A DNA stretch of 20,989 nucleotides, from the NCBI GenBank assembly GCA_016839605.1, contig JAEOTX010000157.1, positions 1-20,989 on the forward strand, read 5' to 3'. A program made the position numbers and the translations under genes. Source of the stretch: Candidatus Thorarchaeota archaeon. Its GTDB lineage: Archaea > Asgardarchaeota > Thorarchaeia > Thorarchaeales > Thorarchaeaceae. Shown here piece by piece: positions 4,155 through 19,931 of this stretch. A model generated the notes under the pieces. That model was not told the origin of the DNA, did not search any database, and saw nothing but the letters and a program-made list of their open reading frames with translations. Position 1 is the first letter of the stretch; every line of letters starts with the position of its first letter.

Positions 4155-5006
4155 ATGAAGTACGGGATAAACCTCCCCAACTTTGGTTGGTTTGGAGATA
4201 TCGACACATTAGTTGAGGTCGCCGTAGAGGCTGAGGAGGCTGGCTGGGATGGCTTCTTTTTGTGGGACCACATGTTGGTCTTCAAGCAAGAGGACATGGT
4301 CTTGCCATTCGCTGACCCGTGGGTTGCGCTAGCTGCGATAGCCTGCAATACTGAGAAAATTCAAATCGGCCCTCTAATTGTACCGCTACCGCGAAGGCGA
4401 CCTTGGAAGGTGGCCAGAGAGGCAATATCAGTCGACCATCTTTCAAGGGGACGACTGATTCTTGGAGTAGGGATTGGGGCACCTCCTGATGTTGAGTTTG
4501 AGTATTTCGGTGAGGGGTCCAATACAAAGACGAGAGCGGAGATGCTAGATGAGAGTCTAGACATCATCACAGGTCTCTGGTCCGGTGAGAAGTTCTCCTA
4601 TAAGGGTAAACACTATGAGCTTGAAGAAATGACATTCCTGCCCAAGCCAAAGAAGGAGTCCGGCATTCCTATTTGGGTGGGAGGTGGGTATCCCTTCAAG
4701 GCACCTTTCCGAAGAGCCGCTCGATATGATGGAGTTACTCCTGTGAACTCGAATTGGCCTGATTTCCTTATGCCGGACCACCTTGAGAAAATACTTGAAA
4801 TCGTGAAAACTGAGAGAGGGACTCTGAAGAATTATGATGTCGTAGTCTGTGGAGATACTACAGGCACCGATTCTACATCAGATAGAGCCACTATTGAATC
4901 GTGGGCAGAGGTTGGAGCGACTTGGTGGCAGGAGAATATCAGCGGAATGCGTGCAGGGATAGACGATCTCCGAGAGAGGGTGAGAGCAGGACCGCCTGCA
5001 ATGTGA
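4155..5006 (+). CDS. LLM-class (luciferase-like) flavin/F420-dependent oxidoreductase
   Basis: Motifs 'AEEAGWDGFFLWDH', 'DPWVALAAIA', 'RRPWKVAREAISVDHLSRGRLILGVGIG', 'IPIWVGG' and 'RRAARYDG'. Confidence 0.92.
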   Translation: MKYGINLPNFGWFGDIDTLVEVAVEAEEAGWDGFFLWDHMLVFKQEDMVLPFADPWVALAAIACNTEKIQIGPLIVPLPRRRPWKVAREAISVDHLSRGRLILGVGIGAPPDVEFEYFGEGSNTKTRAEMLDESLDIITGLWSGEKFSYKGKHYELEEMTFLPKPKKESGIPIWVGGGYPFKAPFRRAARYDGVTPVNSNWPDFLMPDHLEKILEIVKTERGTLKNYDVVVCGDTTGTDSTSDRATIESWAEVGATWWQENISGMRAGIDDLRERVRAGPPAM

Positions 5007-17224: not shown

Positions 17225-17363
17225 AAATGCGAATCTCCTGATTGTTCCTTTCCGTGATTCGCGTTGGTGATTTCCTTCTGATAAATAGTGGGAAAAGCAC
17301 GAGAACCACTACAACTTATAGGGGTATATCTACCAAGCTGCATAATGTTATGGTGTGATGGGT

Positions 17364-18263
17364 ATGTCGGAGAGATTAGGGCAACTAGACTTGGTCTTTG
17401 TCGTGGACAATACGGGTTCAATGGGACCTTACATCGACGTAGCAAAGAGCAAGATCCTTGAGATAATTCGTACGATAAAGAAAGAGGAGTTATGTCACAA
17501 CTTGAGAGTTGGCTTGGTTCCCTACCGGGACCATCCACCTGAAGAGCGAACTTACATCACAAAGAAGTTTCACCTCACTGATGACTCAGCGGCCATTGAA
17601 CGTAATGTCAGGAGCATGTCTGCTCATGGAGGTGGTGATGGCCCAGAGGCTGTTGATGATGGGCTCAAAGATGCCATCAATCTTGAGTGGAATGGAGAGG
17701 CTGCAAAAGTCATAGTTCTTGTGGGCGATGCCCCTCCACATGGTGTTGAGTCTGGAGATAGGTGGCCAGATGGTCCTCCCAGTGGTGTACGATGGGAAGA
17801 AGAAGCAATAAACGCCTACTATGAAGGAATCATTGTTCATACTGTGGGCTGTTATCCTGAGATTTCTAGGTATGGCAATGCTGTCAATGTCTGGAAGAAG
17901 ATAGCAGCTGCATCTGAAGGCAAATTCTTTCCACTAGACCAAGCTGAAAACCTTGTCCAGATAATAACTGGCGTTGCTATCGAGGAGATAGACAAGATTG
18001 CAATTCAACAGGCTATTTTGAGAGAGATGGGTATATTCGCTATCGAGGACTTTCCTTCGGAAGATGATCTTACAGAAGAGAAAGTTGCGGAACTGGCCAC
18101 CAAGGTTCGTGGAAGTGGTCTGAAGAAGCGCGCGGTGACAAAGGCACGTGTGGCAGCTGGTGCGCCGGGAGCTGAGAGATTCACTCTCGAAGAGAAGGAG
18201 ATTACTGAGGGGGATGTCATGGAAGCTCTCCGGCAGCTTAAGAAGAAGGCTGATAGTTGGTAA
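17364..18263 (+). CDS. von Willebrand factor A (vWA) domain protein, paralog 1
   Basis: MIDAS 'DLVFVVDNTGSM', plus 'YRDHPP', 'GGGDGPEAV' and 'DAPPHG'. The start is set at ATG 17364 by alignment with the paralog (MSERLGQ/MSEKLGQ). Confidence 0.92.
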   Translation: MSERLGQLDLVFVVDNTGSMGPYIDVAKSKILEIIRTIKKEELCHNLRVGLVPYRDHPPEERTYITKKFHLTDDSAAIERNVRSMSAHGGGDGPEAVDDGLKDAINLEWNGEAAKVIVLVGDAPPHGVESGDRWPDGPPSGVRWEEEAINAYYEGIIVHTVGCYPEISRYGNAVNVWKKIAAASEGKFFPLDQAENLVQIITGVAIEEIDKIAIQQAILREMGIFAIEDFPSEDDLTEEKVAELATKVRGSGLKKRAVTKARVAAGAPGAERFTLEEKEITEGDVMEALRQLKKKADSW

Positions 18264-18340
18264 GGGGACTCCCCAAATATACAACTAGAACTTTATAGGT
18301 GCCAATCCGCAGCATTAGCCAGATAAAGGGTGGTCAGATT

Positions 18341-19234
18341 ATGTCTGAGAAACTAGGTCAGTTGGATTTAGTATTTGTAGTTGATAACACGGGCTCTATG
18401 GGGCCTTACATCGATGTCACCAAGAGAAAGATCCTTGAGATAATTCGTACAATAAAGAAGGAAGAGCTCTGTCATCGGCTGCGAGTGGGATTGGTATCTT
18501 ATCGTGATCACCCACCGGAAGAGTTGACATTCGTAACTCAGAAGTATGAGCTATCTCCTGATACTGGCAAGATTGAACAGAATATCATGCAGATGTCTGC
18601 AGATGGTGGAGGCGATGGACCCGAAGCTGTGGATGACGCTATGGATGCCGCTAACCGGATGGAGTTTCTTTTGGACGCTGCTAAGGTTGTCGTGCTAGTG
18701 GCTGATGCGCCGCCACATGGTGTTGAGGAAGGCGACAGATGGCCTGATGGTCCTCCAAGTGGAATAAAGTGGGATGTTGAAGCCAAGAAGGCATATGATA
18801 AGGGAATCGTCTACCACACTGTGGGTTGCTTCCCTGAAGTGAAAAACTACACACATGCCGTACGCGTATTTCAGGAGATTGCTGAAACGACTCAGGGTAA
18901 GTTCTTCCCGCTCAATGAAGCAGAGCTCTTGGTGAAGATCATAACTGGAGTCGCGATTGAAGAGATCGACAAGATTGCTATCCAGAAGTCAATCCTAGAA
19001 GAAATGGGGGTCTCTATGGAGGAGTTTCCAGCAGATGAGGAGCTAACCGATGAGAAGATTCACGAGTTGGCGGCCAAGGTCCGAAGCACAGGCATGACGA
19101 AGCGCGCTGTAAAACACGCTCCTTCAGCTGCGGGAGAAAAGGAAGTTGAGGGCTTCATCCTTGAACCTGAAGAAATTTCTGAAGCTGACATCAGAGAAGC
19201 AGTGCGGCAGCTGAAGAAGAAGTCTGACAAGTAG
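18341..19234 (+). CDS. von Willebrand factor A (vWA) domain protein, paralog 2
   Basis: Same motifs as paralog 1 and colinear over the full length. It has its own AACTTTATAGG promoter-like box at ~18289; ATG 18341. Confidence 0.92.
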   Translation: MSEKLGQLDLVFVVDNTGSMGPYIDVTKRKILEIIRTIKKEELCHRLRVGLVSYRDHPPEELTFVTQKYELSPDTGKIEQNIMQMSADGGGDGPEAVDDAMDAANRMEFLLDAAKVVVLVADAPPHGVEEGDRWPDGPPSGIKWDVEAKKAYDKGIVYHTVGCFPEVKNYTHAVRVFQEIAETTQGKFFPLNEAELLVKIITGVAIEEIDKIAIQKSILEEMGVSMEEFPADEELTDEKIHELAAKVRSTGMTKRAVKHAPSAAGEKEVEGFILEPEEISEADIREAVRQLKKKSDK

Positions 19235-19240
19235 AATTTG

Positions 19241-19347
19241 CATGTGTGCGGTGACCAGAGCCAACAAGGCTTACTGGTAGGAGGGGGGGAGTTATGAGGG
19301 CATGTTACAGAAAATAGGCCCTGTCAGCCGCCTGACCACCACACATG
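19241..19347 (-). ncRNA. Putative small RNA: 28-bp imperfect hairpin presenting a C-rich loop
   Basis: Minus-strand stems CAUGUGUG/CACACAUG (8 bp), GUGGUCAGG/UCUGGUCAC (9 bp) and GCUGACAGGGC/GCCUUGUUGGC (11 bp), with 6 G-U pairs possible only on the minus strand. The loop contains AUGCCCUCAUAACUCCCCCCCUCCU. TTATTAAG lies ~20-27 nt upstream. Confidence 0.65.
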
Positions 19348-19374
19348 TAGTGTACTGCGCTACATCTTAATAAG
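19345..19374 (-). promoter_or_regulatory. TATA box (TTATTAAG) and an imperfect palindrome ATGTAGTG-N5-CGCTACAT between the TATA box and the putative RNA 5' end
   Basis: 7/8-matching inverted repeat at 19345-19365; TATA-like element at 19366-19373 on the minus strand. Confidence 0.45.
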
Positions 19375-19493
19375 CACTACTCTCGAAATCTGTGAGCTGG
19401 CGCCCATTTCATTTTATAACAACTGCAAAGCGGAGGTTGCCAAAGCACAATGCTATTCAAGGAGTCCTATGCCAGCAAAATGAGGTTCACGCG

Positions 19494-19931
19494 ATGACTG
19501 AAGAACATCGATATGAGCTTGAGAGCAATTGGGTACGTGAGAAGATTGTCACTATTGAGATTGGTGGCAAGTCAACATTCGAAGTAGCGACTCCCCCTGA
19601 TTTTTGGCCAGAGTCTCCCAGAGAACTAATCTCACCTGAGGATCTCTTCCTTGCTTCTGCGGTATCATGCTACGGAGTGTCCCTCTCTGGTGTTTCCAAG
19701 CGATTCCATGCGGAATTCACTACGTTTTCAATAACGGCAGAAGGTACACTTGCAAAAAGGGAGTTTGGCTGGGAGTTCGACAAGATATCGATGTTCGCAA
19801 AAATAGTGGTTCCTACAGAGAAAGATCGAAAGCGAATGGAAAAGGCCGCTCAAAGGGCGCACGCATATTGCCTTGTAACCAATTCGATGAAGTGCACTGT
19901 TCACCTTGAGACTGAGATAGTTATAGGCTGA
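19494..19931 (+). CDS. OsmC/Ohr-family protein
   Basis: 'SPEDLFLASAVSCY' and 'AHAYCLVTNS' carry the two conserved Cys. The start is moved from 19392 to the in-frame ATG 19494, after GAGGT. Confidence 0.9.
   Translation: MTEEHRYELESNWVREKIVTIEIGGKSTFEVATPPDFWPESPRELISPEDLFLASAVSCYGVSLSGVSKRFHAEFTTFSITAEGTLAKREFGWEFDKISMFAKIVVPTEKDRKRMEKAAQRAHAYCLVTNSMKCTVHLETEIVIG

Follow-up and report, generated by a model that had tools for sequence, protein, structure and literature searches.

Almost nothing is known about the regulatory RNAs of Asgard archaea, which are the prokaryotes most closely related to eukaryotes, and a 259-nt gap separating two plus-strand genes of a Thorarchaeota genome raises the question of whether it holds a gene for such an RNA and, if so, what the RNA might bind. 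A first-pass annotation of the window (the whole stretch of DNA analyzed, 20,989 nt) had read this gap as containing an independent minus-strand Asgard sRNA gene with its own promoter. The conservation of the TATA box and the marks of selection at the RNA level described below agree with this gene-level reading: as judged by sequence comparison, the locus is an undescribed small RNA gene. Very probably, positions 19237-19347 of the minus strand constitute a non-coding RNA gene of ~110 nt with its own TATA box, in which a long G-U-rich helix undergoing compensatory turnover displays a G-poor apical region with a U-rich linker and two invariant C-rich strands (Table 1).

Fold and promoter of the predicted RNA

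Table 1. Features of the candidate RNA locus and its neighbors, in window coordinates.
Feature	Position	Strand	Remark
vWA-domain gene (second of two tandem paralogues)	18299-19234	+	upstream neighbor
Predicted small RNA, ~105-111 nt, type A paralogue	19237-19347	-	covariance model matches
P1 3' arm	19241-19270	-	pairing and covariation
C-rich strand CUCCCCCCCUCCUACCA, includes CCUCCUA	19275-19291	-	invariant in alignment
Invariant motif ACAUGCCCUCA	19295-19305	-	open strand in type A; hairpin loop in types B, C
U-rich linker CUAUUUUCUGUA	19306-19317	-	U-rich in all three subtypes
P1 closing helix 5' arm (7 + 9 + 12 pairs; GC bulge 19330-19331)	19318-19347	-	covariation, types A/B
TATA-like promoter box CTTATTAAG	19366-19374	-	fixed offset among type A/B copies
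OsmC TTTTATAA box	19412-19419	+	OsmC gene's own promoter box
OsmC-like gene	19494-19931	+	divergent neighbor, outside RNA; Pfam OsmC E 2.7e-15

On the minus strand, positions 19347-19318 pair with 19270-19241 in segments of 7, 9 and 12 pairs with two GC bulges between them, and the previously described 28-bp stem with six G-U pairs is recovered exactly, as 22 Watson-Crick and six G-U pairs. This pairing, enforced on the minus-strand RNA (19347 to 19236), gives -35.7 kcal/mol; the unconstrained MFE of -38.2 corresponds to an alternative three-way fold whose pairings are not kept in relatives. Folding energy alone favors neither strand, and the comparison with shuffled sequences that the annotation had proposed turned out unexceptional, with z-scores of -1.87 for the minus strand (10 of 200 shuffles as good) and -2.06 for the plus strand. 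The apical region (19271-19317, ~47 nt) is G-poor, has almost no internal pairing potential and is predicted to be open. The C-rich loop claimed for the locus is present within it, at 19275-19305, with a mean unpaired probability in the window RNA of 0.79 for CUCCCCCCCUCCUACCA and 0.62 for ACAUGCCCUCA. The U-rich linker might conceivably be a site for an Sm-like protein.

The promoter box CTTATTAAG lies 19 nt upstream of the outer extension of the stem and 26 nt upstream of a GGUGG segment conserved in the family, and a spacing of ~20-26 nt between box and stem start fits archaeal TATA-to-start distances. A TATA box at the expected distance, as noted earlier, is therefore confirmed, and it also recurs in relatives: CTTATTAG or CTTAATAG stands at a fixed offset from the motifs in 24 of 30 type A and 28 of 34 type B copies (subtypes are described below), while type C copies have a TATA-like box ~40 nt further upstream than types A and B, which implies a 5' extension. 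The predicted transcription start, at ~19344-19347, coincides with the first bases of the stem. The operator-like palindrome reported between the TATA box and the 5' end survives only in part, being present in the window and in a 92%-identical relative but lost or changed in an 84%-identical relative and absent from distant type A copies.

At the opposite end, only 7 nt separate the 3' arm from the vWA stop codon, so that the two would be transcribed convergently. A simple terminator scan finds no site at the RNA locus; most copies have a pyrimidine-rich tract after the helix, and the window copy has no clear U-run.

Some features of the surroundings deserve mention in their own right. The two tandem vWA-domain paralogues (window 17355-19234) share ~72% DNA identity across blocks of ~300 nt. 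Within 19375-19419, the TATA box of the small RNA (minus) and the TTTTATAA box of OsmC (plus) stand back-to-back, ~40 nt apart, and a block between both promoters, CACTACTCTC...GTGAGCTG, is kept in genus-level orthologues; it may be a site for a shared regulator.

An RNA family of the Thorarchaeales

The family was defined by alignments A1-A3 of this analysis, and its members carry, on the RNA strand, ACAUGCCCUCA followed by CUCCCCCC(C)UCCUACCA, a covarying closing helix around both motifs and, a constant distance upstream, a TATA-like box of their own. All of these are present at the RNA locus in the window. Judged by these features, the window element is one paralogue (type A, linked to OsmC) of an uncatalogued multi-copy RNA family of the Thorarchaeales. 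Covariance model R2 matches 19237-19345 of the minus strand at 97.2 bits, and model R1, built from type C paralogues only and with the window copy left out, finds that copy at 31.3 bits (E 1.3e-4, whole genome searched), confirming homology between subtypes.

Three subtypes can be distinguished in the alignment. A small inner hairpin (P2) occurs in types B and C, the latter of which also differs by a closing helix of only 14 bp and a 5' extension of ~50 nt; type A is without P2 and the 5' extension and keeps the motifs. The stretch in the window is single-copy at the DNA level in its own genome assembly (80% complete), which also holds a type C copy (contig C192:50281-50397). In both BLAST against relatives and the alignment, conservation is greatest in the loop, not in the stem: among the 113 aligned sequences, AUGCCCUCA is invariant in all, with the two preceding bases kept in at least 90%, and the 12-nt CCCCCCUCCUAC is likewise invariant in all 113, its flanks nearly so.

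The stems, in turn, change in a compensatory manner. In type C (54 sequences), 97.8% of the cells in the named structure are paired, as opposed to 33-57% when the partner is slid, and 12 of the 14 P1 pairs show compensatory double changes, a level reached by none of 500 shuffles; in types A and B (53 sequences), 85% of cells are paired vs 35-45% with the partner slid, and 15 of 28 P1 pairs show such changes. The covariation expected by the first-pass annotation is thus found in the closing helix of all subtypes. Moreover, the non-Watson-Crick cells, when read on the window minus strand, are G-U rather than A-C in ratios of 96:2 (type C) and 167:44 (types A/B), and this excess indicates an RNA read from the minus strand. 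Together with the compensatory changes, these ratios bear out the earlier proposal, made from the window copy, that selection acts on RNA rather than on a DNA palindrome.

The same results bear on a simpler explanation, namely that the element is a mere DNA palindrome, a terminator serving the vWA gene or, on the plus strand, a leader of OsmC that holds a tiny ORF. The element lies 7 nt after the vWA stop codon, its plus strand folds equally well and that strand shows GGAGG and then ATG, but both the G-U/A-C asymmetry and the conserved TATA box point to the minus strand, the paralogues sit in unrelated contexts, the loop and not the stem is most conserved, and the terminator scan finds none; we consider this explanation highly improbable. 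A terminator typically consists of a short GC-rich hairpin followed by a U-tract, with conservation confined to the stem, and an intrinsic or bidirectional terminator was rejected given that the scan finds no site and that the loop is the invariant part. A coding plus strand was also rejected: the tiny frames vary in length and stop among subtypes, no synonymous change is seen and the strand asymmetry is opposite.

The RNA is widely distributed in its own lineage. BLAST yields matches in 24 of 24 genomes of the taxonomic family, frequently with several loci in one genome; a pattern joining the two conserved blocks occurs in over 118 contigs, almost all of which bear the name Thorarchaeota (Asgard archaea) in their titles. 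Among 151 genomes sampled from the phylum, R2 finds the RNA in all 26 genomes of the own family and in the single sampled genome of a sister family in the same order (1-9 copies per genome), and in none of 123 genomes from 25 other Asgard families. The search for homologs and paralogues suggested at first pass thus returned copies in 26 of 26 genomes, falling into three paralogue groups.

Each group has its own genomic context: an OsmC homologue is divergently adjacent to type A at 31 loci, type B adjoins a gene for a 428-aa membrane protein, and type C is flanked by genes for a radical-SAM and a PhzF-like protein. This persistence of neighbors indicates vertical inheritance of old paralogues and not mobility. 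A mobile, MITE-like repeat would account for several copies per genome and for the long inverted repeat, yet the own genome has only two copies, which cross-score at 31-65 bits and are not near-identical, synteny is kept across genera in each paralogue group, and there are neither target-site duplications nor transposase neighbors, so that such an origin is barely conceivable. Neither a known mobile repeat nor a simple bidirectional terminator, the two alternatives named at the outset by the annotation, therefore fits a locus with no terminator site and with syntenic, divergent paralogues. Some genomes carry tandem type C copies ~330 nt apart (L163:4215-4329 and 4546-4660; G052:C26:68224-68652), indicating that local duplication contributes to copy number. 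Several loci (L011-L014, at ~1500-1690, L024, L042, L080 and L166) have extra hairpins of 20-40 nt at loop or linker sites, for example between ACCAGU and the 3' arm, and the invariant motifs remain intact, as expected for a modular structured RNA.

Relationship to known RNAs

The annotation had recognized no known family, and a search of Rfam 15 agrees, giving nothing relevant for this region of the window (E up to 10) and no match at four paralogue loci (E up to 1); literature searches found no description of the Thorarchaeales RNA. The family thus combines an order-wide, multi-copy distribution and strong covariation with 28 nearly or fully invariant unpaired nucleotides, and is absent from Rfam.

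Several candidate identities were tried and rejected. Neither RsaE/RoxS, 6C nor any other Rfam 15 family gives a covariance-model match; ARAGORN reports 0 genes in the window, which dismisses a tRNA or tRNA-like gene; and an rRNA-guide RNA (C/D or H/ACA) is disfavored as no C/D or ACA boxes were seen when the sequence was inspected and complementarity to rRNA is limited to 7-9 nt, like that of shuffles. The idea of a Y RNA in a Ro60 RNP rested on the long terminal stem, the pyrimidine loop and the vWA neighbors, but vWA linkage holds at only some type A loci, and the TROVE domain (PF05731) is found in 0 of 31 genomes, with positive controls; the window RNA is therefore not a Y RNA.

Covarying stems combined with invariant junction or loop nucleotides are also a signature of ribozymes and riboswitches. 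The RNA could accordingly be a ribozyme or a ligand sensor, with its invariant nucleotides built into a tertiary core instead of being exposed for binding, and the 5' GGUAGG or GGUGGG of type C, which complements CCUACC, would allow a pseudoknot. Against this, the apical region is poor in G and offers hardly any scope for internal pairing, type A keeps the motifs without P2 and the 5' extension, no consistent sense gene lies downstream, and no ribozyme or riboswitch in Rfam matches, making a tertiary core very unlikely. The predicted 5' end of type C (e.g., L003:1400-1470, and upstream of 50281 on C192 in the own genome) has a conserved G-rich motif—GGUAGG, GGUGGG or GGAGGG—which matches the complement of the invariant CCUACC/CCCUCC and, in part, that of the CCACC tail beyond the helix; a pseudoknot, or masking of the motif within the same RNA, may result.

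Similarities of design can be found in both prokaryotic domains. RsaE/RoxS and 6C RNA, the C-rich-loop sRNAs of Firmicutes and Actinobacteria, act on G-rich ribosome-binding sites, and the Thorarchaeales RNA resembles them in being small, in its predicted independent transcription and in having two or more unpaired C-rich motifs complementary to such sites; they differ from it in fold, in motifs (UCCC; C-runs in two hairpin loops) and in domain of life. In Archaea, trans-encoded sRNAs such as sRNA162 of Methanosarcina mazei mask ribosome-binding sites and have experimentally known targets. The Thorarchaeales RNA is likewise intergenic and archaeal, has its own promoter and is proposed to pair with mRNA 5' regions, but whereas RNAs of the sRNA162 type are single-copy and species- or genus-specific, it forms an order-wide, multi-copy family with invariant motifs.

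The closest analogue is provided by the cuckoo RNAs of Alphaproteobacteria (RSs0680/CcsR and SmelA075/SmelA099 families), which occur in up to 9 copies per genome and consist of 2-4 adjacent hairpins with CCUCCUCCC in each loop (PMC4615179). Their invariant C/U-rich loop motif partly matches the anti-Shine-Dalgarno sequence, their stems vary by compensatory mutation with little sequence conservation, and subsets of copies keep their intergenic neighborhoods (PMC4615179). The Thorarchaeales RNA likewise comes in several copies, with an anti-SD-like motif that never varies, stems that covary and neighborhoods that are kept; in contrast with these bacterial RNAs, it is archaeal and has a single clamp helix, a large open apex and two different motifs, with no sign of homology (no Rfam match). 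It is not a member of the cuckoo family, given that CCUCCUCCC is absent and that it forms one long helix with an open apical region.

Possible partners of the C-rich strands

By the precedent of the cuckoo, RsaE/RoxS and 6C RNAs, and given the CCUCCUA likeness and the predicted unpaired state of the motifs, we propose tentatively, and with somewhat less than even confidence, that the RNA acts in trans through its C-rich strands. These would pair with the GGAGG-type Shine-Dalgarno regions of mRNAs at their ribosome-binding sites, which would alter the translation or stability of the mRNAs, possibly with the assistance of an Sm-like protein on the U-tract.

The sequence context is suitable for such pairing. 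The 3' tail of the own 16S rRNA ends in UCACCUCCUAAG and has the 7-mer CCUCCUA in common with the C-rich strand of the RNA, and AGGAGGUGA Shine-Dalgarno sites are enriched ~6-fold or more upstream of start codons, extending genome-wide the earlier remark that genes here use GGAGG/GAGGG-type motifs. Duplexes of -10 kcal/mol or stronger with the motif form at 24.8% of 1891 start regions vs 17.3% of coding windows, but shuffled or reversed motifs reach 29-35% of start regions in the same test, and the C-rich motif therefore has no specificity for these 1891 start regions over its shuffled versions. Since shuffled motifs pair equally well or better, generic anti-SD pairing leaves the 17-nt invariance unexplained; more broadly, generic SD pairing, which involves 5-7 nt, cannot account for 17 + 11 nt that never change. 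The extended complements GGAGGGGGG and TGAGGGCATG show no enrichment in the genome, and the 7 occurrences of GGAGGGGGG vs ~14 expected suggest that extended targets are rare. Complements in 16S or 23S rRNA reach 7-9 nt at most, and shuffled motifs do as well. For the trans-acting translational regulator with an anti-SD loop envisaged at first pass, CCUCCUA of the 16S tail and the SD sites of the genome are thus in keeping with the anti-SD likeness, but pairing with starts is no better than that of shuffles.

The fixed partner may instead be a protein. The RNA would then be part of a ribonucleoprotein, or a decoy, its C-rich strands serving not as mRNA seeds but as sites for a conserved protein, for instance one of the poly(C)-binding KH type or the Sm-like type, or a factor that recognizes the 16S 3' tail. 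A fixed macromolecular partner would account better than generic SD pairing for 17 + 11 nt that stay exactly the same throughout an order in which the stems turn over, and the equally good pairing of shuffled motifs with start regions and the failure to find an rRNA partner in 16S and 23S point the same way. The recurrence of the 12-nt CCCCCCUCCUAC in an unrelated scaffold on contig C154 would also suit a modular binding site. However, no candidate protein is linked to the RNA in the genome, neighbors vary by paralogue, and no TROVE/Ro60 protein occurs in 31 genomes, and overall we regard a protein partner as a serious but somewhat less probable alternative. The element on C154 (own genome, C154:1900-1990; L179, minus) is intergenic and has CCCCCCUCCUAC followed by AGGAAACAGAGAGA; it is kept in five genomes of the genus, is without the ACAUGCCCUCA motif and is matched by none of the family models.

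A further, quite unlikely, scenario is that the family mimics the 3' end of 16S rRNA, as an order-wide decoy that would titrate either SD-led mRNAs or factors by which the 16S tail is read during small-subunit maturation or initiation. Besides the internal CCUCCUA, most type C paralogues have a stable helix and then a CACCUYCU tail. If correct, this would imply a global control of translation peculiar to Asgard archaea, or else a new RNP, and not a gene-specific regulator.

Under trans pairing with ribosome-binding sites, as preferred above, C-rich anti-SD sRNAs would have arisen independently in archaea; if a protein is bound, the family would mark a new RNP of the lineage. In either case, the covariance models, motifs and promoters can be used for annotation and for mining metatranscriptomes.

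The 16S rRNA gene of the own genome has a peculiarity of its own. It carries an insertion of ~29 nt within its 3' end, between GGAUC and UCACCUCCU (contig C82:4549-4577; L171:1481-1509, minus), that can form a small hairpin, and the whole 16S is matched in Rfam over 2131 nt, which indicates further insertions or introns.
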